This document shows positions 10,609 to 39,986 of a stretch of 64,000 nt of DNA, in pieces. Position 1 is the first letter of the stretch. The number at the start of each line of letters is the position of its first letter. Under the pieces are notes generated by a model. That model was not told where the DNA came from, ran no database searches, and saw only the letters and a list, made by a program, of their open reading frames with translations. Origin of the DNA: a virus; the IMG/VR virus record IMGVR_UViG_3300020123_000589, positions 32,001 to 96,000 of that record. One strand, 5' to 3'. Both the position numbers and the translations under genes were made by a program.

Positions 10609-11482
10609 TTCTAAAATTACAGACTTAACAGGGAAAATATTTGGTAGACTCACAATTATTAAATTAGATAAGGTTGTAAATTATTGTTCTTATTGGTTAG
10701 CCAAGTGCTCTTGTGGAAACGTCATAAGTGCTCGAAGAAGTAATCTTATAAATGGACATATTCAATCTTGTGGATGTTTGTCGCATGAATTGCGCGTACA
10801 ACGTGGGAAAGACAATAAAATACATGGGATGGAAGGAACAAGGTTTTATAGAATTTGGCATGGAATGAAAGGTAGATGTTTAAATCCAAATGACAAGGAT
10901 TACCCAAAGTATGGTGGAAAGCTTTGTGAGAGGTGGTTTGAGTTTCTTAATTTTAGAAACGATTTATACAACAGCTATGTAAAGCACGTAGAAGAGTTTG
11001 GGGAGGAAAATACCAGTTTAGACAGGTTTCCTAATCAGATTGGCAATTATGAACTTAGCAACGTTCGCTGGGCGACTAGAGAAGAACAACAGCAAAATAC
11101 CAGAATGTCTGCAAAAACGGGTAATTACGAAAAACATATTTATTGGAAAAATCGGATTCAAGATACAATTTGTCAAGCATTAAAACGTCAAACAAATAGC
11201 CCAATACTTGAACAATATGTAGGATGCAATTTGAATGACCTTCGTAAACACATTGAATCCCAATTTCAAGAAGGAATGACTTGGAATAATCATGGACGTA
11301 GCTACGGGCAGTGGCAAATTGATCACATTATTGGTTGTAATAATTTTGATCTTTCTAATGAGGCAGAACGAAAGCAGTGTTTCTATTATGTTAACTTACG
11401 ACCGATGTGGAAAGAAGATCATGTAAAAAAGAGTGTTCGTAGATTACAAGTTACAAAAGAGATTGCCAATGCCAAAATTTAA
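10601..11482 (+). CDS. HNH-type homing endonuclease
   Basis: DLTGKIFGRL..CSCG..SCGC, W.GMK.RC, SLDR...NYELSNVRWAT, GMTWNNHG..WQIDH..NLRPMW; likely ATG 10601 overlaps the upstream stop. Confidence 0.85.
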   Translation: MINSKITDLTGKIFGRLTIIKLDKVVNYCSYWLAKCSCGNVISARRSNLINGHIQSCGCLSHELRVQRGKDNKIHGMEGTRFYRIWHGMKGRCLNPNDKDYPKYGGKLCERWFEFLNFRNDLYNSYVKHVEEFGEENTSLDRFPNQIGNYELSNVRWATREEQQQNTRMSAKTGNYEKHIYWKNRIQDTICQALKRQTNSPILEQYVGCNLNDLRKHIESQFQEGMTWNNHGRSYGQWQIDHIIGCNNFDLSNEAERKQCFYYVNLRPMWKEDHVKKSVRRLQVTKEIANAKI

Positions 11483-13697
11483 ATGCCAAGAGTGCAGCCA
11501 TATTTTTGATGTAGATCGTATCCCCAAGATTGATAGAGGGTCTGATGCTCCAACAGTGAATGATTATTCAGGCAATTTTTTTTGGGGTCCCCGTGACCTC
11601 GGAACGGTACATCAGCATAGTCCAGCAGACTCTGGTTGGGCTCCCGCAGGTACAGAAAATTACGATGGAGTTTCATCTAACGTGATGATGAGTTCTTTCA
11701 ACAGCTTTATGCACAAGCAATCAAATTTAAGCAAAGCAGCTCATTGTGGTCCCTGCTCCGTACTTAAGATGGAAGTTCTTCACATCCTCATTGATCTTTA
11801 TTACAAAGACAATTCTTTATTCCCCGAAGAAGTTATTGAAGAACTTTCTGTAGCTGCAACGGAACTCAATATTGATAATTTTAATGATATTTTAGAAAGC
11901 GTTATCACAGAATATTTAGAAGAGAAAGCCGAAAAGGTTGGAGACAAATTGCCAAAGCTTAAGAATCTTTTGGTTGCTTTGAAAGATATTTCGCCTAAGC
12001 TTGGCAAAGATATTGAGGTTGTTGATAAGCAGGAGAATGTGGATAAAGAAGCTTCATCACATGTGCAAAATATTAATGGTGTTCGTGTATACCGAAATCC
12101 TCAACCAGAACAAGCTGTTAATTTATTTAGACATTCAAAAGAACAAGCGTTACGTTATATTGCTACAGAATATGGGGATATTTATATGTGGGATGCTTTT
12201 GATGTTGAGCATTCACAAATGGCTGAAGATCTTGGTCTAACAGATGACCCAAACTGGTATGACGGTGCAGGTACAATTATCTCAGAGAAACAGGCATATG
12301 AGAGAGCAAAAACATTTAATCCATCTTCTTTAGAGCCCCAAGTAGCTAATTTAAAACAAGCAGCCAAAGAAGTTCCAGCCCTTTCAAACAAAGTAGTTAC
12401 AGATTTGATTCCGATGTTTGTTGATAAAACAGAACCCCCAGACCATAAGTGTAAGACATGTTCTTTTAAAATAGAGAAAGACGGCAAAGCCACTTGTGTG
12501 ATTATGAAAGGTGAAATCAATTTAGAAAAGGGAAGTTGTAATTATTGGTCTGAAAGAGAAGTACCACAAAATGCCAATTCGTCCAAGATGGAAAGAAAAA
12601 CTGCTGGATATGTAGAAGTAGATGGATTGATTAATTGTAGCACCTGCTCCTACTACGAACATGATTTTTGTAAACTCTGGCAGGGGTCTGTTAAAGACGA
12701 ACAATGTTGCATGGCTTGGGAAGGAACTACAACAAAAGAAGCAAGTATAAATTTTCAACAGGCCATGGAGAAAGCTACAAAAGAGTTGATGGGGGAATGC
12801 AAATTAAATGATATAAAAGATATCTCTGGTGGTTATTGTGAAGATTGGGTAGCAACCGTAAAAAAATATTTTCCAAATATTAAACGAGTGGATTATTCCA
12901 TTGGTAAATATATTCCGCATTCTGTAATTGAATATAACGGAAAATTTTATGATAGTGAAACACCACAAGGGGTTTCATCTTTAGATGAATTACCCTTTTC
13001 CAAACGATATGTAAATGAAGGACCAATTGCTTTGGAAGATTATACAAAAGAAGGATCATTAAATAAACAAGCCAATCCTCCGAGTAGATTTTGGATTGCA
13101 CCAAATGGGAAAGAGTTTGATGCAGGTACTAACCACGGAGCTTGGATTAAAGTAAATAAAGATTTGCTTGACAAACAATATGGAATAAAGAATCCAAATC
13201 TTGGATACGTATGGGATGCCTTGTTAAATAATGGTTGGGTTCGTGTATCAAATGAGCCAGCAGGAACAGGATTTCAAATTCAAGTTAAAAATTTAAAAAG
13301 CTTACCATCTTTTCTCGATGATTTTGTATCTCAAAATTTTAATGAGGGTAATCGTATTGAGATGGGAGATCAAAGCGGTAATTTAGTGCAAATTTATAAT
13401 CCCTTTCCCTCTCTTCAGAAAGCGGTCAATAGAGCGTTGTCATTAAGACAAACGGCAAATGCCAACTTAAAGCAAACATCCCTTCTCGATGAAGTATTGG
13501 ATCAAACGACCCAGGACGCTATTGCAGCTGAATACGGTCCTTCAATGCTCATTGCACTTAGATTCTATAATGATGCTGCACGTTATGGACAATCACCAGA
13601 TCGTGCGATGGCCTATGCTTTAGAAGAAGTAAAAAGAATGCATCGTCCATTGGAACAAAGAAAATTTTTAGAAGTGTTGGATACTTATTTTCAGTAA
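11469..13697 (+). CDS. multi-module protein (HiPIP-like pair, Cys-His-Asp module, WIxPxG module); probable C-terminal part of the split gene
   Basis: starts MPKFKCQEC (second half of a zinc ribbon); K-x-A linkers; alternative start GTG 11433. Confidence 0.62.
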   Translation: MPKFKCQECSHIFDVDRIPKIDRGSDAPTVNDYSGNFFWGPRDLGTVHQHSPADSGWAPAGTENYDGVSSNVMMSSFNSFMHKQSNLSKAAHCGPCSVLKMEVLHILIDLYYKDNSLFPEEVIEELSVAATELNIDNFNDILESVITEYLEEKAEKVGDKLPKLKNLLVALKDISPKLGKDIEVVDKQENVDKEASSHVQNINGVRVYRNPQPEQAVNLFRHSKEQALRYIATEYGDIYMWDAFDVEHSQMAEDLGLTDDPNWYDGAGTIISEKQAYERAKTFNPSSLEPQVANLKQAAKEVPALSNKVVTDLIPMFVDKTEPPDHKCKTCSFKIEKDGKATCVIMKGEINLEKGSCNYWSEREVPQNANSSKMERKTAGYVEVDGLINCSTCSYYEHDFCKLWQGSVKDEQCCMAWEGTTTKEASINFQQAMEKATKELMGECKLNDIKDISGGYCEDWVATVKKYFPNIKRVDYSIGKYIPHSVIEYNGKFYDSETPQGVSSLDELPFSKRYVNEGPIALEDYTKEGSLNKQANPPSRFWIAPNGKEFDAGTNHGAWIKVNKDLLDKQYGIKNPNLGYVWDALLNNGWVRVSNEPAGTGFQIQVKNLKSLPSFLDDFVSQNFNEGNRIEMGDQSGNLVQIYNPFPSLQKAVNRALSLRQTANANLKQTSLLDEVLDQTTQDAIAAEYGPSMLIALRFYNDAARYGQSPDRAMAYALEEVKRMHRPLEQRKFLEVLDTYFQ

Positions 13698-13700
13698 GAC

Positions 13701-13729
13701 TTGACTCCTTTCGATAAGTGTGGTATAAT
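13701..13729 (+). promoter_or_regulatory. sigma70-type promoter, probably giving a leaderless deoC mRNA
   Basis: TTGACT-17 nt-TATAAT with extended -10 TG; ATG follows 7 nt after the -10 box. Confidence 0.75.
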
Positions 13730-13736
13730 AGAGAGA

Positions 13737-14444
13737 ATGGAAATAAATAAACTGATTGATCATACTGAGTTGCAACCCAATAAGCCGCTTGGCCGTTATA
13801 CGGAGTTAGTACGAGAATCTATTTTTCATAAATTTCATTCTGTATGTGTTTCTAGTTTTCATACACCACTAGTTGCCAATTTTCTTCATTCATACGTCCA
13901 CACAGATATGAATTTAAATATTGCGGTAGCAACGACAATCGGATTCCCTTTAGGCACCAGCAGCATCCAAGCAAAAGTAGTTGAGATGCAACAAGCATTT
14001 AACGATGGTGCAACAGAGTTTGATTTTTGTATTAATACAGGTTTAGTGAAAACAAAAGAATGGAAGCACATTAAAGATGAATTTGTTACACTTCGTAATG
14101 CAATACCCACAACTGAAAAGTTTCATCCAATTTTGAAGGTTATTTTAGAAGTGGGGTTGTTGGAAGATGACGAGATAAAAAGAGCTTGTGATATTGCAGT
14201 TGCAGCAGGTTTGGATTTTGTCAAAACATCTTCAGGATTCCTTTCAAAATTAGAACCAAAACAGACCTCCAGATATGTCAAATTGATGTCCGATCAAGTT
14301 AAAGGTAGTGGGATGTTGGTTAAGGCCAGCGGTGGAATAAAGACTTTAAGTGATGTTAATTTGATGCTAGAAAACGGTGCGAATCGAATTGGCACGTCAA
14401 ATGGTGTATCAATAATGAAAGAAATAGAGGAGAATAAGAAGTGA
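13737..14444 (+). CDS. deoC: deoxyribose-phosphate aldolase
   Basis: IDHT.L, IGFPLG, GATEFD, LKVILE, FVKTSSG (Schiff-base Lys), [15 protein letters not shown]. Confidence 0.93.
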
Positions 14445-15848: not shown

Positions 15849-16499
15849 ATGAAAAAGTTATTAGGCGTTGTTATTGCCTGTTCTTTGCTTTTGTCTGCCT
15901 GTTTACCTCGTGATATTGCTCTCGCTAGGCGTTGTCTTTCCTCCACAGTTTTAGTTCATATAAAAATTGCTAAAGGAGATAAGCGCGGCATGGGTACTTG
16001 CTCAGGTGTTTATGTAGCCCCCAATCTCATTTTAACAGCTAATCATTGTGTAGATATGGAAGATGGACTCGAATTAAAAGGAATTTGGATTCGAAATGTT
16101 TATGATGAAGCTGCAAAAGCAGAAATTGTAAAAGTAGATGCTGAGAAAGATTTGGCATTGCTCAAGACATCGCTTAAAGGCATTCCAGTTTCCTTAGCTA
16201 GGAAAGTAACAGTGGGAGAAGAAGTTTGGGTAATTGGGCAACCTCTCGGTTTAAAGTTTGTTGTAACTAAAGGCATCATTAGCAGCCTTAATGTTTCAAC
16301 TTTGAGTTTTCCAATAAATCATTTTATTACGGATGCTGTTGTTTTGCCAGGAAATTCGGGTGGACCCGCTTTCAATTCAAGGGGTCAGCTCGTAGGTATT
16401 TTAACAATGAGTACGTCTGTATTTGGGGTATTTGGTGCAGCTGGTTTAGGTATTGTAGTTCAAATCGACGAAGTGAGAAAATTTTTAAAACAAAAATAA
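15849..16499 (+). CDS. trypsin-like (S1/HtrA-type, no PDZ) serine protease, predicted lipoprotein
   Basis: TANHC, DLALL, GNSGGP triad motifs; MKK + hydrophobic stretch + LSAC lipobox; SD AAGGA. Confidence 0.88.
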   Translation: MKKLLGVVIACSLLLSACLPRDIALARRCLSSTVLVHIKIAKGDKRGMGTCSGVYVAPNLILTANHCVDMEDGLELKGIWIRNVYDEAAKAEIVKVDAEKDLALLKTSLKGIPVSLARKVTVGEEVWVIGQPLGLKFVVTKGIISSLNVSTLSFPINHFITDAVVLPGNSGGPAFNSRGQLVGILTMSTSVFGVFGAAGLGIVVQIDEVRKFLKQK

Positions 16500-16500
16500 C

Positions 16501-19500
16501 ATGCAAAAGAAAGCAAATATCCTCGACTGGCCTAAGCCATCTTTAGAGCCAGCTATTTGGAATCCAGATAATACTTTAAAGCCTGAAGTTAAGGAATTCA
16601 TTTTAGGTTTTATCCATTCCTTTGCCAAAGCGAATAATTTTAAAGATATTAATGCCTGGATAACAGATGTTAAATTTGTTGGTTCCCTAACAACAAATTG
16701 TTGGAATTCCAATTCTGATATGGATATTCATATCGCTGTAGATCTTTCCAAGTTTGTCGAAGTGGAACATCCCGAGATGTCTGAGCAAGAAGCCAGCGAT
16801 TATTTAGACGGTATTCGTAAACAGGTTGATCAAGTGAAAGCTAAAGTTCCAGGTACTGAGCATCCTACAGAAATCTATTTTGAAACAGAGTTTACCACAC
16901 ATGCCAGCCAGGAATTCTCTGGTACGTATTCAGTTTTGCAGGATAAGTGGCTCTTAGAACCCCATATTGTTGGACAAGATTTTGACATGTCCACGCTACA
17001 TCCCGACCTATTAAATTTAGCCAAGGAAACAGCATCAGAGTTGGATGCCTCTTTTGGTGAGCTTAAGAGAGATGTTCAGGATATTAAAGAGCTTGAAGAA
17101 ACTCTTAATTATTGGCCACCTGAGCAAAGGGAACTGCTTGAAAAGAAATTGCAAAAGAGATTAGATGAACTTGAACAGGATATTAAAGTACTCGTAGAGT
17201 TACGTGAGGATGTGGCGGAGAAGCGTAAGCATTATAAAGCTTTGTCTGAGCAAGAAGTTCGATTTAAATACTTGCAGAAGTACTTTTACATGCATGTCCT
17301 TACAGATCTTAAAACCCTTCTAAAACAATCCCCTGAACTATCTGTTAAAGATATTCCAATTGTTGAGAATATTATGCAGCAAGCCTCCTTAAAATTAGCC
17401 TACCAAGAAGAAGAGAATCGAATTTTGGTAGATATGGATGATACTATTTGTCATGAAGCTTCCGATGGTGAATGTGGAGAGCCTATGGAAGGGGTTAAAG
17501 AAGCCCTTACAAAGCTCAAAGAAATGGGTTACGAGATTGTAATTTTTAGCCATAGAGCAGATGATAAACATGGCGAAGATGAAATCAAAAAGTATCTAGA
17601 AGCTCATGAGATTCCCTATGATTCTATATATAAAGGTGAAAAACCTTTAGCCAGATTTCAGATAGATGATCGAGCGATCCATTTTGATAATTGGAATAGT
17701 GTATTAAAGCAGATTGAGAAATCAGCTTCTCTTTCAACCAAATATTGGATTGATCCTAATGGCAAAGAATATCAAGTGGGGACAGCTTTAGGGCATTACG
17801 GATGGGTTGCTAAGAACATTTTAAAAGTTGATGATGAAGCCGTTAAGAATGATAAAAATCTCTTAAATCAAGTTTATAATAAAACAGAGCAAATGATGGA
17901 AGAAGGTTGGGCAAGAATTTCTTCTGAAAGTGGGGGGCAATTTGCTATAGAAGTTAATAAGTTAGAAAACCTACCTTCTTATCTGGATAATTTTATTGCC
18001 GCACATTTTAATCAGGCAGAAGCTGAAAACGGTGTTGGTATTGAATTAGATGACCAACAGGGAAGCTTTGTAACAATTACAGATCCCTTTCCTAATATTC
18101 AACAAGCTGTTACAAAGAAACTTAATAATCAAATGTCAGTAGCAGCAAAAATCCTTTCCAAAAAAGAAGCTACTGCTTTCAATCCATACCAAGATGAATC
18201 CTTGAAACAAGGACCTCCTTATGCTATTTATATTGGAACACAGGAGATGGGGGAAGGATATGCTCCTGTTAAGCTTTACAATATTTTTGGGGAGCATCCC
18301 AGATTTGGAAGTACTGTGGCTGAAGAAACTCTACAGGAATTGGGCATTCCAATACGAGAAACCAAAACGGCACAGTTAGGCTCTGAATACGACTTCAGTT
18401 CCACACATTTTTTGTTGCCAAAAGAGATTGCTGAGAAAATAATTAGATGGGCTGTGGAAACCATCCCAGAAGATCAAATAGTTCATGATAGCAAAGATCC
18501 AGGAACTAAAGGGGTTCAACTAGAATCTCACATCACTTTAAAATATGGTTTGCTTACCGATGACTTTGAAGAGGTGAAGAAAGCCCTTGAAGGTGAGAAA
18601 GCTCCCCATCTAAAATTTGGTAAAACCTCTTTCTTTGAACCCGAAGGGAAGGATTACGATGTTGTAATTATTCCCGTAGAAAGTGAAGACCTTCAAAAAT
18701 TAAATGAGAAGCTTTGTTCTCAAGTAGAACATGATGATCTGCAATTTAAAGAGTACCATCCCCATGTGACAGTTGCCTACATTAAAAAAGGTTTGGGGCC
18801 AAAGTATGAAGGGAAAGATATTTTAGAAGGTGAAGAACTTGATTTAAATGTACTAACCTTCTCTCCCAAGGAAGGTTCTAAACAGGAAATGGAACTTGGT
18901 AAAGCAACAGAGAAAAGCTCTAGTTTTATGCCATCAAATACAGATTTGGCACCAAGTAATGATTGGATTTCTGAAACAGGCTACCCAGGCAATTCTGAAA
19001 TGGATGCACCACAGAATGTTTCCGACGAGTCCACTTGGTATTCACCAGAGAATGATCGACCAAGAACGAGGAATTTTTGGCAGAAGATGCTTAGCTTGTT
19101 TCAGAAGCCTTTAAGTAAGAAAGAACCTAAGAATATCGTGCCTGTGAAAGAGGCTTCCTCCAATGTTTTCATGCTAGATACTGATTCTGGATTACAAACC
19201 AAAGCGTTAAAAGATCCTACATCAGAACAAGCCGTAAATTTATTTAACAGTACTCGTGGAGAAATTCATCAGCTTCGCTGGTTTATTCCTGTTGATGGCC
19301 ATTTATATATGTGGGATGCTTATGATTTAACTCATTGGGATGCCATTAAACAAATCGGAATTCCAGCCACTCGATTAGCGGAAGATATAAATACAGGAGT
19401 TGCACGTACTGAATATGAAGCTGAAATAATTGCCGAAGAATTTAAAGAGTTTGGATTTGTTAATATGAATAAACAAGCAAAACAATGGGTTACACCAACC

Positions 19501-21870
19501 GAACATGTAAATCAGCCAGGAATGGCTTGGGGTTGGGCTGACTACATTTACAATTACGTAGAGGAAAACTGGCAGGATTTGTTAGTAGGTTGGTTAAATT
19601 TAGATCCTAAGAACTATGTGAAACCCGTTGTTCTAATTGAAAAGATTTATCAGGATGAGGGTGGAGTATCTGCTTGGGTTCATATTGAGTTTGTGAATAC
19701 AGCAGCCAATACAGATGCTTTCATGAAGCTTGTTATTTCTGCTCGTATTGAAGGTGAACAAAGTATTGAGCCTGAAGGCCCAGAATATTTTGAGCATTTA
19801 ACAGATTGGGAAATTGATGTGAAGGATTACGGAAAGAGTGATGAGTTGGAGAAATCGAGTAGCTATGGTCCAACCAACTATCAAGGCCCTTCTGTAGCCG
19901 ATCACGGATATCAGAATAGTGCGTGGGATGATATGAACGTCACTTATTCTCCTGAAGAAGATGAAAAGTTCCTAGATCAGAATGGTGCAGATGGATATCC
20001 TAATCGTTGGATGGGCAGACATCGTGGACCATACTATACGAATGAAGGTAAAGTAGTTAAGATGCTTGAAGATACTAAGCCGCAAAAGCAAACTTCTTTA
20101 GAAAATTTTCTTCCTGAACAAGAATTCATCCCAGAACATTTAAATGCTGGGACAGCTATTATGACAGATGATGGATCTATTTATTGGAGCGACGAGCCTC
20201 ATATGATTCATGTCAAATTAATTAAAGAATTGGGTATTCCCGTTGAGCACATTGTTTCTGGTGGTCGTATAGTAGATGGAGATTACCACGATTTAGGACC
20301 TCGCTCAGATGCAATGAGATATGTTGAAATGGAATTGGCTAAGCAGCGTGTTGAAAAAAAGAGAAAAGAGCGAAGAGCATTAGGAAAAAAAGATATTAAA
20401 GCCGATTTTACGGATAAAGGATATTGGGTTGATCCATCTGGAAAATTTTATTCAGTTAGAGAAAGTGGTGATGGTATAACTCATTCAATGTGGGCAGCGG
20501 AACACATTGATGCATTGTACCCAGATATATCTGATAATGAATATAACGATGCCTATGATTTTTTACTAGAACACGGATGGGTTAGAATTGGAGATTCAAG
20601 TGTGGCAGATTATGGAGTTGAGGCACTTGATCCCCTCAATCTACCTTCTTATGTTATTGATTGGGTGAATAACCACGTACATGGAAAAGTTGATATTGAA
20701 AAATATCCAGCCCGTAGGGGAACTAGAGCAGTCATTGAACTTCCCGTCGATGATTTACAAGAAACGATCAACAACGAATTCAAATTACAAAAATTAGCTC
20801 CCGTTGCTAAACAAGCAGCCATCTCAGGTCAAACAGTGAATACCATTCTAAAACTCATTGAGCAGAATGGCGGAGCTACTTACAATCTTGCAAGTAATAA
20901 AAACCTCGTCGGTACGGATGCTTTCTCGGTTGCAATTTATCCAGATCGAGAACAAATAGTAAACCTTGTAGATTATAATAATTTAGAAGGATACCTAGTT
21001 GAGAATGAAGATTTGTTATCCGACCCCAATAATTCTTTTGGAGCTTGGGTAAGTGGTGGGAAAACTTATTTGGATGTCGTAGCTACGATAAAAGATAAGA
21101 ATCAAGCTATGAAGCTTGGACAGGAACATAAACAACTTGCAATCTTCGACCTCAAGAATTTGGTTGAGATTCCATTGCAGAGAGTGGCTAAGCTTGCTGC
21201 TTTACTACGATCTTGGATTGATCCACAAGGAAAAGTTCATGATATTAGCCCCAATCCATCTCACAAAATGTGGGTTTATAAAAATCTTGTGGACCCCTCT
21301 ACGCCCATTCCTCAAGTCGAAGATGAAGTTTGGAAAAAAGTTGCTGAGATGTTTGAATCTGGTTGGACCAGAGTTTCTACAGATTCTCATAATATAGAAG
21401 CTTCGTTGGTTTTGGAAGTTAAAGATTTAAAACGACTACCTCCTTATTTAGATAATTTTGTAGCGGAGAATTTTCAGGAAGGTCGCCCAATAGAACTTGG
21501 AGACTCTAAAGGCAAAGTAGTTTTAGTTTATGATCCTTTTCCTTCTCTTCAAAACGCGGTAAATAAAGCTTCAAGACAGCCCAAGGTAGCTGCTGCTGTC
21601 AGCGACCGCGAACAACAGAAATATTATGATGAGATTTATTCAGATCGTTGGAGAGATGATTCAGATAAGATAGACGGCGGTAATGAATATTATGATTGGG
21701 CTGAGGGCGGAAGTAATGATTACCCCAATCCAAAAGATGAAGAAAAAGAACATTGTTTACTTGATCAGCTTGAGAAACCAATAAATCGTAACAACCCTGT
21801 AGGTCTTGGCGAATATGCCATAACTTACTACGACGCTTTTCCAGACCAGGGAGACAAAGGGGGCATTTAA
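16501..21870 (+). CDS. 1789-aa polyvalent protein: Pol-beta-type nucleotidyltransferase, HAD phosphatase, 2H phosphoesterase and repeated modules
   Basis: VGS...SDMDIH; ILVDMDDT...IDDRA; HITL...HVTV; modules bounded by K-x-A. Confidence 0.75.
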   Translation: MQKKANILDWPKPSLEPAIWNPDNTLKPEVKEFILGFIHSFAKANNFKDINAWITDVKFVGSLTTNCWNSNSDMDIHIAVDLSKFVEVEHPEMSEQEASDYLDGIRKQVDQVKAKVPGTEHPTEIYFETEFTTHASQEFSGTYSVLQDKWLLEPHIVGQDFDMSTLHPDLLNLAKETASELDASFGELKRDVQDIKELEETLNYWPPEQRELLEKKLQKRLDELEQDIKVLVELREDVAEKRKHYKALSEQEVRFKYLQKYFYMHVLTDLKTLLKQSPELSVKDIPIVENIMQQASLKLAYQEEENRILVDMDDTICHEASDGECGEPMEGVKEALTKLKEMGYEIVIFSHRADDKHGEDEIKKYLEAHEIPYDSIYKGEKPLARFQIDDRAIHFDNWNSVLKQIEKSASLSTKYWIDPNGKEYQVGTALGHYGWVAKNILKVDDEAVKNDKNLLNQVYNKTEQMMEEGWARISSESGGQFAIEVNKLENLPSYLDNFIAAHFNQAEAENGVGIELDDQQGSFVTITDPFPNIQQAVTKKLNNQMSVAAKILSKKEATAFNPYQDESLKQGPPYAIYIGTQEMGEGYAPVKLYNIFGEHPRFGSTVAEETLQELGIPIRETKTAQLGSEYDFSSTHFLLPKEIAEKIIRWAVETIPEDQIVHDSKDPGTKGVQLESHITLKYGLLTDDFEEVKKALEGEKAPHLKFGKTSFFEPEGKDYDVVIIPVESEDLQKLNEKLCSQVEHDDLQFKEYHPHVTVAYIKKGLGPKYEGKDILEGEELDLNVLTFSPKEGSKQEMELGKATEKSSSFMPSNTDLAPSNDWISETGYPGNSEMDAPQNVSDESTWYSPENDRPRTRNFWQKMLSLFQKPLSKKEPKNIVPVKEASSNVFMLDTDSGLQTKALKDPTSEQAVNLFNSTRGEIHQLRWFIPVDGHLYMWDAYDLTHWDAIKQIGIPATRLAEDINTGVARTEYEAEIIAEEFKEFGFVNMNKQAKQWVTPTEHVNQPGMAWGWADYIYNYVEENWQDLLVGWLNLDPKNYVKPVVLIEKIYQDEGGVSAWVHIEFVNTAANTDAFMKLVISARIEGEQSIEPEGPEYFEHLTDWEIDVKDYGKSDELEKSSSYGPTNYQGPSVADHGYQNSAWDDMNVTYSPEEDEKFLDQNGADGYPNRWMGRHRGPYYTNEGKVVKMLEDTKPQKQTSLENFLPEQEFIPEHLNAGTAIMTDDGSIYWSDEPHMIHVKLIKELGIPVEHIVSGGRIVDGDYHDLGPRSDAMRYVEMELAKQRVEKKRKERRALGKKDIKADFTDKGYWVDPSGKFYSVRESGDGITHSMWAAEHIDALYPDISDNEYNDAYDFLLEHGWVRIGDSSVADYGVEALDPLNLPSYVIDWVNNHVHGKVDIEKYPARRGTRAVIELPVDDLQETINNEFKLQKLAPVAKQAAISGQTVNTILKLIEQNGGATYNLASNKNLVGTDAFSVAIYPDREQIVNLVDYNNLEGYLVENEDLLSDPNNSFGAWVSGGKTYLDVVATIKDKNQAMKLGQEHKQLAIFDLKNLVEIPLQRVAKLAALLRSWIDPQGKVHDISPNPSHKMWVYKNLVDPSTPIPQVEDEVWKKVAEMFESGWTRVSTDSHNIEASLVLEVKDLKRLPPYLDNFVAENFQEGRPIELGDSKGKVVLVYDPFPSLQNAVNKASRQPKVAAAVSDREQQKYYDEIYSDRWRDDSDKIDGGNEYYDWAEGGSNDYPNPKDEEKEHCLLDQLEKPINRNNPVGLGEYAITYYDAFPDQGDKGGI

Positions 21871-32832: not shown

Positions 32833-35800
32833 ATGGCACTATTTAAACGTGGGACTATTCTAAAGATTAATAAAACAGCCGCATCTGCCACAGAGCTTAT
32901 TATTGATCGTCCTCTAACTGAAGAAACAAAAGTTGTTGAGGGTAAGAATCCTGAATTTTTATATTTTGTAGCAAAAGCCATTGCCGCTGGTGACGAAGGT
33001 CCATTGGGCAAGAATGGTTCTAGAGAGTATAATTATAACGGAAATGGCGATTATTTTCCTAAGAAAGAAATTGAAGGTGCTTACCAAACTTTTATAGGAA
33101 AGGGAATTTATCTCGACCACAATGCTTCAAGTGTTATGTATTCTGTTGGGAAGATTATTGATGCTTTTCCTACGGTAGATCCAGACAATAAAGAATGGAG
33201 CATTTCCTGTCTTGCTAAGATTGACAGAAAGCTTCATCCTGAAATTGCTCGTAAAGTTGAAACTGGTGAATTGAATACCGTTTCCATGGGTTGTTCTTGT
33301 GGAGAATCCAAATGTTCAGTTTGTGGAACAATCCTTCGAACGGACGATGACCCTAAGTGTGAACATCTATCTCCTGGCAAATTGATGCACGAGTTTCAAG
33401 CAGAAATTGATATTCCAGAGTATGGAATTAATAAGGGCCAAACAGTAAAAAGTTTTGCAATTAATTCACAAATCAACTTCAATGAGTTGAGTTTGGTTGG
33501 TGTACCTGCATGGCCCCGCGCATTTGTTACCACAATTTTAAGTAACTTAAAGGCTAATATCAGTAAGAAAGCTTCTTTAACCAAAGAAGAACAACTTGAT
33601 TTAGTAGCGCAGTTTGAAAAGCTTGTAGACACTTTAGATTCTACTACAAAAGAACAGGTCAAAGCCGAATTTTGCGGTTGCCCAATTGTCAAGGAGAATA
33701 ACATGTCCGATACCCCCCAGAAACAATCGAACGATGAAGTAACAGATTTATTGAAGAAAGTGAGTGCTTATGAGATGGAGAAGCTTGAGAATTATATCCA
33801 ACATAAGACTCGCAAAGCAGAGGCAACCGCTGCCGCTGATACAAAGACCAATGATTCCAATTGGATGAATGGTATACTTGAGAAAGCAAAAAATACGGCT
33901 GCTGGTAAAGTATTTGCAAGAACGATTCAGCGATTGGCTGAGGAAGAAAAGAAGCCAGAGTTTGTATATGAGAAGGAAGCTACGTCCGAAACTACTCTTA
34001 AACCAGTTAAGAAATCTTCTCTCACAGCCATGTTTACAGTAAATAAAGAAGAACCAATGAAATCTTCTTGGGCTCTTTTAGACGGTAGTGATAAAGTTAT
34101 TTTAGATGCTTCACTCAATGAGATTTGGGGAGATCAGTTTGAAGCTAATCAAGATTTTGCAGTTAGTGAGGAATATGGTAGAGCAATTGCCGCACGATTT
34201 TTGGACCCTAAACTTGGTGGCGTTGAGAAACTTGCCGACCTTTGGGATGTTTCATATAAATTAAATAAAGAGGCTGACATGAATAAATCATCCGAACACG
34301 GCGAATTTTTCAAAGCTAAAGATTTCTTTGTACCTGGAAGTGATTCTTCTAATAAATACACTCCAGAGGAGATTAAACATATGCAAGAAAAAGAACACAC
34401 AGAAGCCAAAGGCAAAAAGGTTGAAGCTGGGCATATAGATGAAAAATTTGATATTACGGAAGGTAAGGGAAAGCTCTTTGATGCAAAGAATTTTTTTGAA
34501 CCTGGGTCAGATTCCTCAAATAAATGGAATGATAAACGAGTGAAGATTGAATACTCAATTAGCAAACCTGCTGGTGAGTTTTTCAAACCAGGCTCTGATT
34601 CCTCAAATAATTATAAAGCCACGGATGTAAAAATGGAATACAACATTCCAGGTAAAGCACCAGAAGCAGGTCAGAAAGGCCCAGCAGCCCCTAAACATGA
34701 AGATATTAAAACTACGTATGATTTTAAGAAACCTGAAGGGGAATTCGTTAATACAAATAAGAAAACCAAGCTTGACGAAGAACATGCCAAATCCGAAGAA
34801 AAAATTAAAACAGGATACAAAGGCGATTTGATGTACGATGAAGAGAAAAAGCTGGACGAAAAGGGTGGAAAGAAAGAATCAGCCCTTAAATCAGCTGCTA
34901 AGACTGTAGGTGATTCTCCTGAAAGTTCCGTAAAGGGCGATATCTATCCAGAAAAGAGTCCAAAGACTTCTGGAGATGAACCAGAGTCTTCTTATAATAA
35001 AACAGCCAAAACCGTTGGTGATGCTCCAGAAGGTTCTGTTGAAGAAAGTCAGTATCCCAAAGCTTCTGAGCCTAATAAGGACCCAGAGACATCAGCAAAA
35101 GATATGGAATATAAGCACGAAAAGAACATGACAAAAACTCCTGATTCTTCAGTTCAAGAGAAAATGCCAGCACCCGCTAAATCAGATAAAGATCCTGAGA
35201 CATCTGTAAAAGATACAAAATTTGAAAAACATCCTGATTTAACTAGTAAGCCTGAAACTTCCTCAAAAGAAGATCAGTACCCTACACCAGCTAATCCAGA
35301 TAAAGAACCAGATTCTTCTGTTCAAAAGGGTTCCAATCTAAAAGTTGCTAAAACTCCTGCTGGCTGGGAACACGCAGTTCGTGAGCTTAAGAAAACCGAT
35401 GTTGATAATCCATGGGCAGTAGTTAATTGGATGAAAGATAAAGGATATACACCACATAAGAAATCAGAGCTAGATATGAAAGCTGATGCTGAAATGTGTG
35501 ATAAGTGTTCAATGCCTCTTCATGAATGCGCTTGCATGGCCGCTCAGGAAAATATGGCTCCATCAATGGATGCTCCTAAACCAGAAATGGGTTCTGCCTT
35601 CGATAAAGTTGAAGAGAAACTTACAATTGGCGATGGATATGATGCTTCTAAGGATAAAGAAACTAAAGAGATTATCATTTCTAAAGATGGTAAGGAAATG
35701 AAGCGTCTCCCAGATGGTTTCGGTTCTGATGTTGCTTCTGTTACAAGTCTTCTAAAAGCTGTTCTTGGTCTTCCAACAACAGAAGAGAAGAAAGATGAAA

Positions 35801-36387
35801 AACCAGGAGAAACACTTTCTCCAGTTGAAGAAACTGTTGAAAAAGTAGAAGTTCATCCCGAAATGTCTTCTCCCTCTGAAATGCCTTCTATGAAAGCTTC
35901 TGCTCTAGAAGTAGAATTAAATAAGAAAGCTGCTGAACTAAAAGCTAAGGAAGAAGAGATTATTAAGAAAGAAACGGCTATTCTTGCAAAAGAAGCTGAA
36001 ATTAAGGCTGATAAATTCCAAAAAGCCGTCGCTTCCCGCACAGATCGTTGCCGCAGAGTGATTGAAGCTATGCTTGATAAAAACGTCCTATCAATGGATG
36101 ATGCAGTATTGAAGGAAAAACTACAAGAAGGAACTTATCTTTTGGATGCACGTAAAGCTGCCCTTGATCACGCCATTAGTGCAAAGCTAAAAGAACTTAT
36201 GGCATCCAATGATGTTGAATTGGCTGCAATAGAGAAAACTGTAGATGGCATTAAGCTTCCTGAACAGGAAGTTTCTAAGAAAGCCAATCGTATTCCATTT
36301 GTTAAATGGGATGCAATTCCAACAGAAGATGATGAAATTAAAGGCATCTTTGATCAAATGGGAAAACGCAGTCACTGGAATCAATAA
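32833..36387 (+). CDS. prohead maturation protease fused to a long scaffold region
   Basis: N-terminal NGDYF...TFIGK.IYLDHN...GKIID...VSMG...ELSLV..PA (HK97/herpes-type His/Ser); C-terminal repeats and coiled coil; precedes decoration gene and MCP. Confidence 0.75.
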   Translation: MALFKRGTILKINKTAASATELIIDRPLTEETKVVEGKNPEFLYFVAKAIAAGDEGPLGKNGSREYNYNGNGDYFPKKEIEGAYQTFIGKGIYLDHNASSVMYSVGKIIDAFPTVDPDNKEWSISCLAKIDRKLHPEIARKVETGELNTVSMGCSCGESKCSVCGTILRTDDDPKCEHLSPGKLMHEFQAEIDIPEYGINKGQTVKSFAINSQINFNELSLVGVPAWPRAFVTTILSNLKANISKKASLTKEEQLDLVAQFEKLVDTLDSTTKEQVKAEFCGCPIVKENNMSDTPQKQSNDEVTDLLKKVSAYEMEKLENYIQHKTRKAEATAAADTKTNDSNWMNGILEKAKNTAAGKVFARTIQRLAEEEKKPEFVYEKEATSETTLKPVKKSSLTAMFTVNKEEPMKSSWALLDGSDKVILDASLNEIWGDQFEANQDFAVSEEYGRAIAARFLDPKLGGVEKLADLWDVSYKLNKEADMNKSSEHGEFFKAKDFFVPGSDSSNKYTPEEIKHMQEKEHTEAKGKKVEAGHIDEKFDITEGKGKLFDAKNFFEPGSDSSNKWNDKRVKIEYSISKPAGEFFKPGSDSSNNYKATDVKMEYNIPGKAPEAGQKGPAAPKHEDIKTTYDFKKPEGEFVNTNKKTKLDEEHAKSEEKIKTGYKGDLMYDEEKKLDEKGGKKESALKSAAKTVGDSPESSVKGDIYPEKSPKTSGDEPESSYNKTAKTVGDAPEGSVEESQYPKASEPNKDPETSAKDMEYKHEKNMTKTPDSSVQEKMPAPAKSDKDPETSVKDTKFEKHPDLTSKPETSSKEDQYPTPANPDKEPDSSVQKGSNLKVAKTPAGWEHAVRELKKTDVDNPWAVVNWMKDKGYTPHKKSELDMKADAEMCDKCSMPLHECACMAAQENMAPSMDAPKPEMGSAFDKVEEKLTIGDGYDASKDKETKEIIISKDGKEMKRLPDGFGSDVASVTSLLKAVLGLPTTEEKKDEKPGETLSPVEETVEKVEVHPEMSSPSEMPSMKASALEVELNKKAAELKAKEEEIIKKETAILAKEAEIKADKFQKAVASRTDRCRRVIEAMLDKNVLSMDDAVLKEKLQEGTYLLDARKAALDHAISAKLKELMASNDVELAAIEKTVDGIKLPEQEVSKKANRIPFVKWDAIPTEDDEIKGIFDQMGKRSHWNQ

Positions 36388-37152: not shown

Positions 37153-38363
37153 ATGTCAGAACAAGTTACCAAAACCGCTTCTCCTGATGACATTTATGCC
37201 GCAGGGCTTAGTGCCGCTCAGGTTGAAGAAAAGCTAACTCGTTTGATGAACAGCCCAGGCGGATTGCAGAAGATTGCTCAGCAAATGTTGAGCCCTCTAA
37301 AGCGCGAACTTCTATATGAAGGTCGTATTCGCCAGTTGTTCCAGACGTACAAACTCGCTCTAGGCGAGGAAGCCGTGTTTGACGCAGACTTAGACGTTCC
37401 AGCAGCATCCATTTCCGTTCATGGTTTGCCACAGGAACTACAGGTCGAAGCAGATCGTATCCGCGTCGAAACTGGCCCCCTAGCAACCCGTCCCTTGATC
37501 CGATGGAACGAATCCAACTTCCGAAAGTACGATGTTCTTAATCGTACCCAAGAACGCGCAAAAGCTTCCATTATGCTTCAAGAAGACACAAAAGGTTTTC
37601 AGCTCATTGACTTTGCTGCTGGTCTAACAAATCAGACCCCAGTAAATTCACTATTTGGAACCTCTGCTGCAACCAATAACCCAACCGTGCTACCTGCGAC
37701 TGGTAAATTGGACATGCAGACACTAGTAACAGGTATCGTTACACTACGTTCAAAGTTGCTCGTAGCTTCAAAGATTTATTTGAACCCACTACGAACCGCT
37801 GATCTCATGCTCTTCAACACAACCACATCAGGAACAGGCGGAGCCGGAATTTTCGCTCCTAACTTCCAGGATATGGCATTGAAAGCAGGTCGCGTAGGTG
37901 GAATCTGGGGCGTTGATGTCCTAGAGTCCGTCGTTGTTCCTACAGCTAACACATACGTTCTAGCTCCTGCGGATTATCTTGGCGTTCTCGCCGTTCGTAC
38001 TGATATTTCCGTCGAGACAATGAAAGATGTTAACCAGATGGCCGACATTTTCGCAATCTGGGAAGATATCGGCTTCCTCATTCGCTACGCTAAATCGATA
38101 GTAAAAATCGTAGTTTCTTAAGTCCCTTGGCGTAGTAAAATTGGGCCGTATCGGTGAAACTCTTACCAAGTAATGTTGGAGACAATACCGAGGAAAGACT
38201 TGAAAAATTTCAAGTATCCGTAGAGACTAAACGCCCGACTCCGAAAGGATGAAGTTATAGTCCGACCTTCACAGAAATGTGAAGAGGTTTCCAGAAATGT
38301 GAAATCCATCTCGAAAGAGAAAGTAACAAATCGAAGGGCATTGTTAAAATTGTCGTTAGCTAA
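37153..38363 (+). CDS. major capsid protein; exon 1 37153..38091, exon 2 38334..38363 (the unspliced frame ends at 38121)
   Basis: position, size (322 aa), strong SD AAGGAG, distinct high-expression codon usage; P-domain-like G.IWG.DVL.S.VVP. Confidence 0.85.
38092..38333 (+). ncRNA. group I self-splicing intron, 242 nt, no internal endonuclease ORF
   Basis: P1: exon CTACGCT pairs with GGCGTAG (38129-35), U.G at the splice site; P10: CCCTT/AAGGG; P4 TCGGT/ACCGA; P7 GACTA (38225)/TAGTC (38258); GAAA-capped 3' hairpins; terminal G 38333. Confidence 0.9.
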
Positions 38364-39243: not shown

Positions 39244-39315
39244 GGGCTTGTAACTCAGCGGGAGAGTGCTTGCTTTGCAAGCAAGAGGTCGCAGGTTCAA
39301 ATCCTGTCAGGTCCA
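39244..39315 (+). tRNA. tRNA-Ala(UGC)
   Basis: canonical cloverleaf; G3.U70; CTTGC-TTTGCAA-GCAAG anticodon arm; GGTTCAAATCC; CCA not encoded. Confidence 0.93.
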
Positions 39316-39327
39316 CTGAAGAAATTT

Positions 39328-39910: not shown

Positions 39911-39986
39911 CGCACCGAGAGGTTTTGGTAAACCTAGTTGTCTCATAAGCAACTGATTTGTGGTTCGATTCCACACGGCGCAACCA
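39911..39986 (+). tRNA. tRNA with CAU anticodon (Met/fMet-like, atypical)
   Basis: GTTGT-CTCATAA-GCAAC arm; TGTGG-TTCGATT-CCACA; encoded CCA; C1:A72 mismatch. Confidence 0.8.

Follow-up and report, generated by a model that had tools for sequence, protein, structure and literature searches.

What would a bacteriophage gain from carrying a nucleotidyltransferase (NT), a HAD phosphatase and a 2H phosphoesterase in one giant reading frame, and how would such enzymes be separated to act? The question is raised by an uncultured, soil-type phage with a genome of 151 kb, which is known from metagenomes alone and has no DNA match in the cultured-phage collection. We analysed a window of 64,000 nucleotides of this genome (positions 32,001 to 96,000 of IMG/VR record IMGVR_UViG_3300020123_000589), in which a polyprotein of 204 kDa, with a pI of 4.8 and about 14 modules, is encoded (Table 1). 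A sequence-only reading of this DNA had placed the three enzymes in one head-region protein and proposed that they form a virion-delivered kit for anti-defence signal degradation or RNA 3'-end repair. That they share one protein is established by the single frame of 1,789 residues. The words "head-region protein" are accurate as a description of position only: some 5.8 kb downstream of the gene, in the same orientation, come those for terminase, portal, protease and capsid protein (starts at 27668, 29533, 32833 and 37153, respectively, an order also found in the related locus L001). Genomic context was read from L001-L004 and from IMG/VR loci.

Table 1. Features of the polyprotein locus and its head genes, in window coordinates.
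Feature	Residues	Coordinates	Strand	Description and basis
HtrA/DegP-like serine peptidase		15849..16499	+	lipobox L-S-A-C; stop one base ahead of the polyprotein ATG
Polyvalent protein gene	1-1789	16501..21870	+	1,789 aa, one uninterrupted frame (ORF list and translation)
NT module	1-297	16501..17391	+	Pol-beta core, residues ~28-155; C-terminal helical bundle, residues ~163-295
NT/HAD joint	K298-L-A300	17392..17400	+	K-x-A site
HAD module	299-410	17395..17730	+	minimal capless HAD phosphatase (predicted; motifs, PHROG, TIGR, PDB profile)
HAD/R1 joint	K407-S-A409	17719..17727	+	K-x-A site
R1 module	408-556	17722..18168	+	repeated domain; alignment and model
X module	556-624	18166..18372	+	small; bounded by K555-E-A557 and K622-T-A624
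2H module	623-808	18367..18924	+	2H phosphoesterase (predicted; motifs, PF13563)
L1, M1, M2, M3, M4 modules	805-1295	18913..20385	+	module map; low-complexity in part
R2 module	1290-1436	20368..20808	+	second copy of the R domain
Y module	1437-1566	20809..21198	+	matches PHROG 17808 (function not annotated)
R3 module	1565-1697	21193..21591	+	third copy of the R domain
C module	1696-1789	21586..21867	+	acidic, conserved, C-terminal; K1695-V-A1697 just before
Head-maturation protease with long Lys-rich tail		32833..36387	+	PHROG 18299, 5e-15, residues 82-230
Major capsid protein		37153..38121	+	PHROG 2522; 29% identity to the Bacillus phage G capsid protein

Module borders were mapped by BLAST and phmmer against 19, then about 100, homologues. 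The architecture differs in every homologue compared, with multiple unrelated effector domains per chain: the domain order NT, HAD, 2H is constant among relatives, and the remaining modules are inserted, lost or multiplied. Of the 103 proteins retrieved with 450 or more residues, 35 contain NT, HAD and 2H, six contain NT and 2H, and five contain NT and HAD; recurring NT-2H fusions are also seen in distant proteins. Such domains had been said to occur in phage polyvalent proteins, and the polyprotein, being multi-domain, shuffled and linked to head genes, fits this class. It is a phage polyvalent (putative "cargo") protein whose modules fold independently, and a new variant within the known class.

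The NT module begins with K3-K-A5 and holds the Pol-beta motifs that had been picked out as a GS..DMD pattern: G61-S62, 10 residues and D73-M-D75 (nt 16681-16725), fitting hG[GS]x10DxD. The third carboxylate, E124, sits on strand 122-128 of the AlphaFold model (pLDDT 93.2). D73 and D75 are present in 149/149 family members, G61 in 95% and S62 in 97%; position 124 is Glu in 85% and Asp in another 5%, and W150 is invariant in the family. The predicted structure agrees with the fold assignment, since the top Foldseek matches (LinB, CdnE, ANT(6), AadA, GlnE, MNT) are all Pol-beta nucleotidyltransferases, each of them weak (best, LinB, E 3.8e-3). Two further structural searches of the model, an all-against-all and a second-look alignment, were dominated by helical-bundle matches over residues 162-297 and thus left the catalytic core uninformed. 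The sequence alone reaches 15.8-19.2 bits, under every curated cut-off (21-27). Family members do better, 23 of 38 matching MTPAP-like_central or NTP_transf_2 at E ≤ 0.1 (best 3.8e-6), and in the PDB profile search the family's strongest matches are still weak (DrrA, 0.058; MNT-like nucleotidyltransferase, 0.08). Relatives amount to 1,453 representative clusters at E ≤ 1e-3, and in ESM Atlas the closest clusters are viral NTP_transf_2. As judged from these relatives, the NT module is a member of a large viral nucleotidyltransferase family without a name; the solved structures nearest to it, each scoring weakly, include CD-NTases as well as nucleotidyltransferases that act on antibiotics or proteins. 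Stand-alone relatives of NT, like those of HAD, are all unnamed or "hypothetical"; one NT homologue lies between two tRNA genes in Caulobacter phage Cr30, and others lie among early and replication genes in T4-like phages. A CCA-adding or RlaP-type enzyme, the former a comparison raised by the sequence-only reading, was ruled out: Pfam models for CCA/PolyA_pol and RlaP do not match the polyprotein at E ≤ 1, and neither is among the 25 families listed, of 60 matched in all, for 38 NT relatives at E ≤ 0.1.

The nucleotidyltransferase may instead modify a protein or small molecule, AMPylating a host effector such as a HEPN RNase in the manner of MNT antitoxins or DrrA, with 2H and HAD cleaning the resulting RNA ends. 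The DrrA and MNT-like profile matches point this way, as do the highest Foldseek probabilities, which belong to MNT antitoxin structures (0.92 and 0.77), and the overall shape of a nucleotidyltransferase joined to a helical bundle, which resembles LinB, ANT and KNTase. Moreover, Pol-beta nucleotidyltransferases of polyvalent proteins have been grouped with protein-modifying enzymes, as relatives of the HEPN-linked MNTs (Iyer et al., PMC5512222). We nevertheless consider this quite improbable: all such matches are weak (E at least 3.8e-3, TM about 0.2) and so do not discriminate between nucleotidyltransferase subfamilies, the published polyvalent enzymes are minimal ones from firmicute conjugative elements and not a 300-aa viral family (PMC5512222), and a HEPN partner is not known.

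The HAD motifs, first noticed as DMDDT...DD from nt 17431, are complete: D311-x-D313-x-T315, S350, K381 and D389-D390. D311, D313, T315 and D389 are kept in 40/40 relatives, as is S/T350, with K381 in 39/40 and D390 in 38/40. The module matches PHROG 1238 at 1e-21 and, in a profile search, PDB 1xpj at 1.2e-9. Its best subfamily is TIGR01689 (EcbF-BcbF; 1e-11, 45 bits against a cut-off of 162), and HAD-IIIA TIGR01662 is matched at 6e-5 (23 bits against 44.6). EcbF/BcbF-type and BT0820-type phosphatases are its best relatives. These motifs and profiles argue that it is a minimal capless HAD phosphatase with intact active-site residues. Comparison with the PNKP phosphatase gave a divided answer: the phage "polynucleotide kinase" PHROG 415 is matched at 5.6e-6, but Pnkp1 (4xrp) gives E 0.51, behind the EcbF/BcbF type, and HMM searches gave no HAD_SAK or PNK-HAD family membership.

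The 2H module carries the two expected motifs where they had been read, H677-I-T679 (HITL, nt 18529) and H755-V-T757 (HVTV, nt 18763). Both histidines and T757 are found in 42/42 relatives; position 679 is Thr in 40 and Ser in two. The module scores 37-42 bits (37.2-41.7) against PF13563, above the Pfam cut-off of 27. TIGR02258 (RNA 2',3'-cyclic phosphodiesterase) matches at 6e-8, its 32.8 bits being below the equivalog cut-off of 65.7, and the PDB profile search retrieves 2fyh (LigT-like) at 1.9e-6, 2d4g (YjcG) at 7e-6 and CPDase 1fsi at 2e-4. PF22547 (2H-SAK), which we take to be the "Swiss Army Knife" repair proteins, matches weakly (E 0.004) and in 5/18 alignment members. A pattern scan with the 2H alignment over 185,579 bacterial and archaeal genomes found no relative.

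The main rival to a role in RNA repair is drawn from the same module. The 2H enzyme may cleave cyclic oligonucleotide alarms (CBASS, type III CRISPR or 2'-5' oligoadenylate-like) at DNA entry, as Acb1 and the poxvirus cGAMP phosphodiesterases do; HAD would dephosphorylate the products against re-use or sensing, and the nucleotidyltransferase would modify or cap nucleotides or make a decoy. All 18 of 18 2H alignment members match Pfam Acb1 (best E 2.9e-7), PF23474 matches are precomputed on two homologues, and the PDB profile search retrieves Acb1 structures at 1.5e-4 to 2.8e-3, among them 9q2g (1.5e-4) and 7t26 (2.5e-3), and the penguinpox cGAMP phosphodiesterase (6e-4). Foldseek places CD-NTases high among its matches to the NT model, and a pre-packed enzyme would be apt against a defence that has to be stopped early. 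Signal degradation has also been predicted for polyvalent 2H domains, which were argued to be likelier RNases or signal-degrading enzymes because they are never associated with RNA ligases (Iyer et al. 2017, PMC5512222). However, the polyprotein's own 2H reaches 14.8-21.3 bits against PF23474, under the cut-off of 27, and LigT-type models score higher; the relatives that BLAST finds in cultured phages bear the annotation 2'-5' RNA ligase, and T4 Acb1 is not among them. The Acb1 connection made by the sequence-only reading is thus outscored by 2fyh and 2d4g, and, on these profiles, 2H appears no nearer to Acb1 than to the LigT/YjcG-type cyclic phosphodiesterases. Since the counter-signalling reading moreover gives no clear role to NTase and HAD, the most persistently linked partners, we regard it as unlikely.

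The protein holds further modules beside the three enzymes. The R domain of about 150 residues, absent from the sequence-only reading, accounts for about half of the otherwise unexplained sequence in 16501-18900; we count 136 copies in 41 proteins, from 1 to 10 or more per polyprotein. The alignment identifies W416, G421, H432, G469-W470 and R472 of R1 as invariant. The R1 model (pLDDT 94.9) finds nothing convincing with Foldseek against the PDB (best E 0.79), with an all-against-all structural aligner (best Z 3.6) or in BFVD (best E 0.025, to an unnamed protein), nor does the sequence have a convincing relative in Pfam, PHROGs, NCBIfam, PDB profile or ESM Atlas searches. As modelled, R is therefore a confidently folded module that matches no known structure. 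Module X, present in 12/19 first-round homologues, is without a match in Pfam and further family searches. The L1-M4 region, with internal joints at K883-E-A885 and K991-Q-A993, has no Pfam or PDB match, and residues 805-1789 as a whole gave none in a PDB sequence search.

How the modules would be separated is suggested by the joints. The K-x-A linkers between domains, which had also been noticed from the raw sequence, prove to be a property of module borders: 101/150 homologue junctions contain the tag against 14.6% of equal-width random windows (4.6-fold; binomial P about 2e-48). The polyprotein itself (P0001) has 14 K-x-A, 10 of them at module borders, where shuffled sequences have 8.8 +/- 2.8. 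K.A is in excess within the family (z = 7.1), flanked as in S-x-K-[EQ]-A-[SA]-L; at the joints the tag is Lys-x-Ala followed by Ser, Ala or Gln. As K.L and L.K are enriched in the family as strongly as K.A, part of this excess reflects helices. High-scoring sites are confined to the protease fusion and to the giant ORFs that precede the terminase.

The same tag recurs on head proteins (a downward arrow marks the predicted cut). The capsid protein has K7-T-A9↓S10 directly before its conserved fold, and in 9/25 distinct N-termini of related capsid proteins, sequences that are not independent, K-x-A lies within the first 6-12 residues; INKEA↓SL, for example, reproduces the joint consensus exactly. 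Two sites, K12-Q-A and K45-T-A, are found in the portal. In the protease fusion the sites are K14-T-A16 and K245-K-A247↓S, the latter where the protease domain ends; the long scaffold-like tail of the fusion has no K-x-A excess (14 against 13.5 expected), unlike the T4 and phiKZ scaffolds, which are full of sites for their own protease. Polyprotein N-termini read M-K-K-x-A↓S-I-L-D exactly in 21/47 and, with an Ala/Ser variant, in 34/47, against 5/40 among stand-alone NT proteins. The head-maturation protease, to which Pfam and PDB searches assigned no peptidase family, is by these sites a candidate enzyme for the K-x-A cuts. Because capsid, portal and head protease all bear the joint tag, it is reasonable to suppose that the polyprotein is processed within the capsid and hence travels with the DNA; it is probably cleaved there and brought into the host as a kit for RNA-end repair or counter-defence.

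A second peptidase is encoded directly 5' of the polyprotein gene. This HtrA-like protein (Pfam Trypsin_2, 3e-24; TIGR02037, 9e-29) also occupies that place, lipobox included, in the related loci L001 and L003, and therefore in three lineages. We rejected it as the processing enzyme, since its conserved lipoprotein signal (L-S-A-C, F-S-G-C) means that it is probably exported, away from cytoplasmic substrates. It still has a part in another explanation, in which the polyprotein is a late cytoplasmic multi-enzyme protein and not a virion component, staying whole or being processed outside the capsid, with K-x-A serving as a helix cap or linker or as the site of another protease such as the HtrA-like one. 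HtrA-type enzymes favour small aliphatic P1 residues, and the gene of this one adjoins that of the polyprotein. Packaging is argued from gene position and a three-residue tag only, the enrichment of K.L and L.K applies here too, the R model places the tag at the end of its C-terminal helix, and the stand-alone NT homologues of T4-like phages belong to early and replication regions. But the tag is concentrated at junctions and returns at the N-termini of capsid, portal, protease and polyprotein, which a linker preference leaves unexplained; the lipoprotein signal should export the peptidase; and in small podophage-like contigs stand-alone 2H and R genes lie between capsid and adaptor genes. We therefore think this explanation improbable.

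We thus propose, as the best explanation although one held at a little short of even confidence, that the polyprotein is a virion-delivered cargo, cut by the head protease and acting on RNA 3' ends. The tags at the capsid and portal N-termini, and the one that closes the protease domain, lead us to infer that the chain would enter the procapsid, be cut after the Ala of K-x-A by the head-maturation protease into pieces of 7-50 kDa, and be ejected with the DNA into the next host. There the three enzymes would act one after another on RNA 3' ends that metal-independent RNases of the host have damaged: 2H would open the 2',3'-cyclic phosphate, HAD would then strip the remaining phosphate and the nucleotidyltransferase would restore nucleotides, all before any phage gene is expressed. 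Internal breaks could be sealed by the Rnl1 ligase and HD-kinase that the phage makes later; both are encoded separately in this genome (Rnl1 and an HD+kinase healing protein), about 28-38 kb from the polyprotein. We favour healing and re-tailing of RNA 3' ends over signal degradation. For the proposal as a whole it speaks that: (i), LigT-like/YjcG proteins and TIGR02258 are closest to 2H, and HAD matches PHROG 415; (ii), the ligase and HD+kinase are present in the same genome, and the Cr30 homologue of NT is beside tRNA genes; (iii), 2H, HAD phosphatase, Pol-beta nucleotidyltransferase and ligase follow one another in the RNA repair scheme of jumbo phages (Iyer et al., PMC7824862) and (iv), polyvalent proteins with 2H and Pol-beta nucleotidyltransferase domains have been predicted to be packaged (PMC5512222). 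Against it stand the failure of NT to match the CCA or RlaP types and the greater nearness of HAD to EcbF/BcbF/BT0820 types than to Pnkp1; in addition, with the HD-kinase the phage already possesses a healing enzyme, and the need for a second set is not evident. The original idea of a kit is accordingly retained in part, for its three superfamilies, conserved catalytic residues and polyvalent class, and is unsupported where it would need a specifically Acb1-like 2H or a CCA-type nucleotidyltransferase.

If K-x-A cutting and co-delivery with the DNA are true, phage head maturation would have a new protease specificity, phages would pre-load a complete RNA-end-healing or signal-destroying pathway ahead of gene expression, and a simple sequence rule would be at hand to read cargo modules from the giant ORFs of uncultured phages. 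Attention would also be drawn to two large uncharacterised families, the R module and the viral nucleotidyltransferase of 300 aa. It is tempting to go further and to speculate, doubtful as this wider picture is, that a clade of soil and freshwater phages, whose capsid protein distantly resembles that of Bacillus phage G, encodes recombining libraries of capsid cargo as giant polyproteins and unpacks them with a head protease whose Lys-x-Ala↓Ser specificity has not been described before. Among the contents would be the nucleotidyltransferase family of more than 1,400 clusters and the multi-copy 150-residue W/H/GWxR domain, which has no PDB relative and may be a new class of injected effector or an RNA-binding partner of 2H.

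Comparison with other cargo systems sets these predictions in context. T4 and SPN3US head proteases cleave after Glu, at L/I-x-E and A-x-E respectively, whereas the predicted site here is K-x-A followed by Ser, Ala or Gln; in form, K-x-A↓S resembles the A↓S sites of herpesvirus assemblin. T4 IPI-III and Alt and the SPN3US/phiKZ-type ejection proteins are trimmed by the prohead protease and injected, and some such capsid-borne proteins are enzymes or anti-defence factors (PMC9026906, PMC10052503, PMC5694885). Those systems and the present one have in common a short head-protease motif that also processes the capsid protein, predicted here from the genes; the cargo units are separate genes there and form one chain here.

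The individual enzymes can be compared likewise. The LigT/ThpR and YjcG enzymes (2fyh, 2d4g), which give the best profile matches, share with the 2H module its size and its pair of H-x-T/S motifs; the module differs from LigT/ThpR in being embedded in a polyprotein and in falling under the TIGR02258 equivalog cut-off. Acb1 (PF23474; 7t26, 9q2g) is also a phage 2H enzyme of similar size, to which the present family has sub-threshold to moderate matches; the module here differs in its score (21.3 bits against 27), in being weaker in this match than in the LigT-type ones and in having no BLAST link to T4 Acb1. RNA repair sets of jumbo phages combine a 2H or cRec domain, a HAD or HD phosphatase, an RlaP/CCA nucleotidyltransferase and Rnl/RtcB (Iyer et al. 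2021, PMC7824862). The three chemistries occur here in the same logical order; those sets, however, are separate early genes linked to ligases, whereas the enzymes here are fused, late and head-linked, with the ligase and kinase 28-38 kb away and a nucleotidyltransferase that is not of the RlaP/CCA type.

The closest parallel is provided by the polyvalent proteins of Iyer, Burroughs, Anand, de Souza and Aravind (2017), whose domain list includes a 2H phosphoesterase and a Pol-beta nucleotidyltransferase and for which release of domains by proteolysis was proposed (PMC5512222). Many unrelated effector domains per chain, a portal-terminase neighbourhood, and predicted packaging and delivery are common to both. 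Pfam finds no zincin-like MPTase, MuF, ArdC-N or other polyvalent hallmark domain in the polyprotein. The nucleotidyltransferase here is a 300-aa viral enzyme instead of a minimal one as in firmicutes, the conserved core includes a HAD phosphatase, a module without known fold is present in 1 to 10+ copies, and the joint tags are common to head proteins, which indicates a head protease over autoproteolysis. Our results thus do not overturn current ideas but extend the 2017 polyvalent-protein concept.

All three motif sets reported by the sequence-only reading, a nucleotidyltransferase (NTase) GS..DMD pattern, a HAD phosphatase DMDDT...DD pattern and the HITL/HVTV pair of a 2H phosphoesterase, lie inside a single ORF of 1,789 residues (204 kDa, pI 4.8), hereafter the polyprotein, and family alignments of 40 to 149 sequences confirm that they are real and conserved. 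D73 and D75 of the NTase (NT) module are present in 149/149 sequences, with G61 in 95%, S62 in 97% and E124 in 85%; in the HAD module, D311, D313, T315 and D389 are invariant (40/40), position 350 is Ser or Thr in 40/40, K381 is kept in 39/40 and D390 in 38/40; both 2H histidines and T757 are found in 42/42 sequences, position 679 being Thr in 40 and Ser in 2. Judged from these alignments, the three modules look like active enzymes held under purifying selection. The genes surrounding the polyprotein in the source IMG/VR record (151,359 bp, completeness estimate 79%; the window covers its bases 32001-96000) are phage-like, and the capsid protein shares 29% identity with its Bacillus phage G counterpart and ~25% with those of cluster C mycobacteriophages. 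No DNA-level relatives were found among cultured phages, a pattern scan of 185,579 bacterial and archaeal genomes with the 2H alignment returned no relative, and every relative is an unnamed metagenomic protein. The aldolase-like gene nearby is an odd neighbour for head genes.

Features of the polyprotein locus and of related loci (window coordinates unless marked; the arrow denotes a predicted cut after Ala)
Feature	Position	Strand	Remark
Giant multi-module ORFs and HNH endonucleases	upstream of polyprotein	+	
Tag-rich ORF	6337-9843		1,168 aa
R copy in ORF 11433-13697	13041-13484		
DeoC/LacD-type aldolase-like gene	13701-14444	+	conserved a few genes 5' of polyprotein in window and related loci L001, L002
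HtrA/DegP-type serine peptidase	15849-16499	+	no PDZ domain; stop codon one base ahead of polyprotein ATG
Polyprotein	16501-21870	+	
NTase pattern	16681-16725		G61-S62, 10 residues, D73-M-D75
HAD motif I	from 17431		D311-M-D313-D-T315; plus S350, K381, D389-D390
R copies in polyprotein	17722-18168 (R1), 20368-20808, 21193-21591		
2H motifs	18529; 18763		H677-I-T679; H755-V-T757
Two further large ORFs	downstream of polyprotein, before terminase	+	
Terminase	27668	+	
Portal	29533	+	tags K12-Q-A (29566-29574) and K45-T-A
Head-maturation protease + long tail fusion	32833-36387	+	tags K14-T-A (32872-32880) and K245-K-A↓S (33565-33576)
Major capsid protein	37153	+	N-terminus M-S-E-Q-V-T-K-T-A↓S (K7-T-A9↓S10; 37153-37182)
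tRNA-Ala(TGC)	39244-39316		just 3' of capsid gene
tRNA-Met(CAT)	39911-39986		just 3' of capsid gene
T4 Rnl1-type RNA ligase (PF09511, 4e-26) and 394-aa HD-phosphohydrolase + P-loop-kinase fusion	~11171-12298 / ~19483-20667 of full phage genome (G000:C1), outside window		pair; fusion resembles HD-Pnk end-healing enzymes
Stand-alone R-like and 2H genes, example contig L015	5074-5448 and 5938-6441 of L015		
Stand-alone NT homologue, Caulobacter phage Cr30 (L129)	151786-152493 of Cr30		between tRNA-Pro and tRNA-Met, near DNA polymerase gene

Comparison with homologues by BLAST and phmmer resolved the polyprotein into ~14 modules (NT, HAD, R1, X, 2H, L1, M1-M4, R2, Y, R3, C). Their arrangement differs in every homologue, and the number of inserted R modules ranges from 1 to 10 or more, while the order NT, HAD, 2H, L1 is kept. 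Of the 103 proteins retrieved with a length of 450 aa or more, 35 combine NT, HAD and 2H, six NT and 2H, and five NT and HAD; in shorter, distant proteins, too, NT is found directly before 2H. That these modules stay linked so persistently is the strongest argument for the three enzymes acting on one pathway.

The proposal that K-x-A linkers delimit the modules was borne out: when only homologues are counted, the window's own protein being left out, K-x-A occurs in 101 of 150 module junctions against 14.6% of equal-width random windows (binomial P ~2e-48). When every a-x-b pair was scanned without bias, K.A came out as one of the most enriched (z = 7.1), its surroundings reading S-x-K-[E/Q]-A-[S/A]-L. 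With a weight matrix trained on the homologue joints, the only ORFs to show high-scoring sites were the giant ones 5' of the terminase and the protease fusion; tail and other genes had none. The strongest enrichment of the window (29 K-x-A vs 10.2 +/- 2.8 expected) falls in the 1,168-aa upstream ORF, which fits the same tag-jointed design. Head proteins carry the tag as well. That of the capsid protein stands just before the capsid homology begins, and related capsid proteins, which are non-independent observations, have K-x-A within residues 3-13 in 9 of 25 distinct N-termini (e.g. I-E-K-E-A↓S, and I-N-K-E-A↓S-L, which matches the joint consensus exactly), most others showing x-x-A↓S/D variants. 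The second tag of the protease fusion falls precisely where the protease domain ends; the scaffold-like tail of this fusion has no K-x-A enrichment. Polyproteins themselves start with M-K-K-x-A↓S-I-L-D in 21/47 cases exactly and in 34/47 with an A/S variant, compared with 5/40 stand-alone NT proteins. From their position, the tags of the capsid, portal, protease fusion and polyproteins lie where cutting by a head protease would be expected. We obtained no peptidase-family placement for the protease of the fusion, and the literature searched contained no description of a K-x-A↓S specificity. The HtrA-like peptidase, encoded directly 5' of the polyprotein in three phage lineages, bears a conserved lipoprotein signal (lipobox L-S-A-C or F-S-G-C); it is thus probably exported and unlikely to be the processing enzyme.

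The R module was absent from the sequence-only reading, although R1 fills ~150 residues of the interval that it covered. We counted 136 copies in 41 relatives, with invariant W416, G421, H432, G469-W470 and R472 (W, G, H, GWxR). Its predicted model (pLDDT 94.9) found no convincing partner in the PDB, either by Foldseek (best E 0.79) or with an all-against-all structural aligner (best Z 3.6, no chain at Z>=5), and its best match in BFVD (E 0.025) is an unnamed protein; R may represent a new fold. Among IMG/VR contigs of small, podophage-like type (L010-L043), a stand-alone R-like gene of 125 aa precedes a stand-alone 2H gene by one or two genes, and both lie between the genes for the major capsid protein and the head-tail adaptor. 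Their adjacency hints at a functional partnership of R and 2H outside polyproteins and at a virion context.

We accept the NT module as a member of the Pol-beta NTase superfamily. The window sequence alone falls under every curated threshold; among 38 aligned members, 23 match MTPAP-like_central or NTP_transf_2 (best E 3.8e-6). In an exhaustive search, 1,453 representative clusters matched at E<=1e-3; stand-alone proteins of ~300 aa are frequent among them, and so are N-terminal positions in giant proteins. In the AlphaFold model (pLDDT 93.2), a helix-strand-[GS]-strand(DxD)...strand(E) core precedes a helical bundle with conserved R190, R242, K256 and Y263. The top Foldseek matches of this model (LinB, CdnE, ANT(6), AadA, GlnE, DrrA, FAM46 and MNT) are all two-domain Pol-beta NTases, none better than E 3.8e-3; in the ESM Atlas, viral NTP_transf_2 proteins form the nearest clusters (score 0.96). 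CCA/poly(A) and RlaP models gave no match. In a third reading of the polyprotein, its NTase would AMPylate a host protein, as MNT or DrrA do. The placement of a stand-alone NT homologue between tRNA genes of Cr30, a T4-like phage, hints weakly at a role connected with tRNA.

The HAD module appears from its sequence to be a minimal capless HAD: it matches PHROG 1238 at 1e-21, PHROG 415 'polynucleotide kinase' at 5.6e-6 and, both short of cut-offs, TIGR01689 EcbF/BcbF (1e-11) and HAD-IIIA (6e-5), and its profile finds 1xpj at 1.2e-9 and Pnkp1 at just 0.51. The 2H module scores 37-42 bits with PF13563 (gathering score 27) and 6e-8 with TIGR02258 'RNA 2',3'-cyclic phosphodiesterase'. The main rival to the RNA-end repair preferred below is an Acb1-like destruction of cyclic-nucleotide alarm signals, and a profile built from 18 relatives does match Acb1 (9q2g, 1.5e-4) and the penguinpox cGAMP phosphodiesterase (6e-4), together with plant CPDase (1fsi, 2e-4). 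The same profile finds LigT-like 2fyh (1.9e-6) and B. subtilis YjcG (2d4g, 7e-6) better than Acb1, the window's domain stays under the Pfam Acb1 cut-off (21 vs 27 bits), and its BLAST relatives in cultured phages are annotated as 2'-5' RNA ligase, never as Acb1. It is therefore a 2H enzyme that is not demonstrably of the Acb1 family.

We prefer a mechanism in which RNA 3' ends are healed and re-tailed. The 2H would open 2',3'-cyclic phosphates made by metal-independent RNases, the HAD would then take off the remaining phosphate and the NTase would restore nucleotides; a pre-packed set would act ahead of the expression of the phage ligase and kinase genes. Such a 2H/HAD/NTase scheme was laid out for separate jumbo-phage genes (Iyer et al., PMC7824862). 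The Rnl1-type ligase and the HD-kinase protein, encoded ~28-38 kb upstream of the polyprotein gene, give the phage a separate classical RNA repair pair, and either could complete the repair. Several points argue against RNA-end repair: the NTase and HAD subfamilies differ from known repair types, RNase or signal-degrading roles are favoured for the 2H domains of polyvalent proteins (Iyer et al. 2017, PMC5512222), and the phage already carries a healing enzyme. What the sequence-only reading observed is confirmed, the Pol-beta NTase, HAD phosphatase and 2H assignments all standing, and its interpretation, a virion-delivered kit for signal degradation or RNA 3'-end repair, finds partial support; CCA models gave no match for the NTase, the HAD scores poorly with Pnkp1, and Acb1 family membership of the 2H is not demonstrable. 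What the comparisons establish is a chain of three intact enzymes in conserved order, jointed by tags, shuffling its other modules and adjoining the head genes.

In every feature testable here, the polyprotein is a member of the polyvalent-protein class: its domains are many and unrelated, the architecture is shuffled among homologues and the gene is linked to head genes. What sets it apart from the described members is the conserved NT-HAD-2H core, the R module, joints that borrow the tag of the head proteins, and the absence of MPTase, MuF or ArdC domains, which are usual in the class. The proteases of T4 and phiKZ/SPN3US cut at Glu-type sites, from which the predicted K-x-A↓S site differs.
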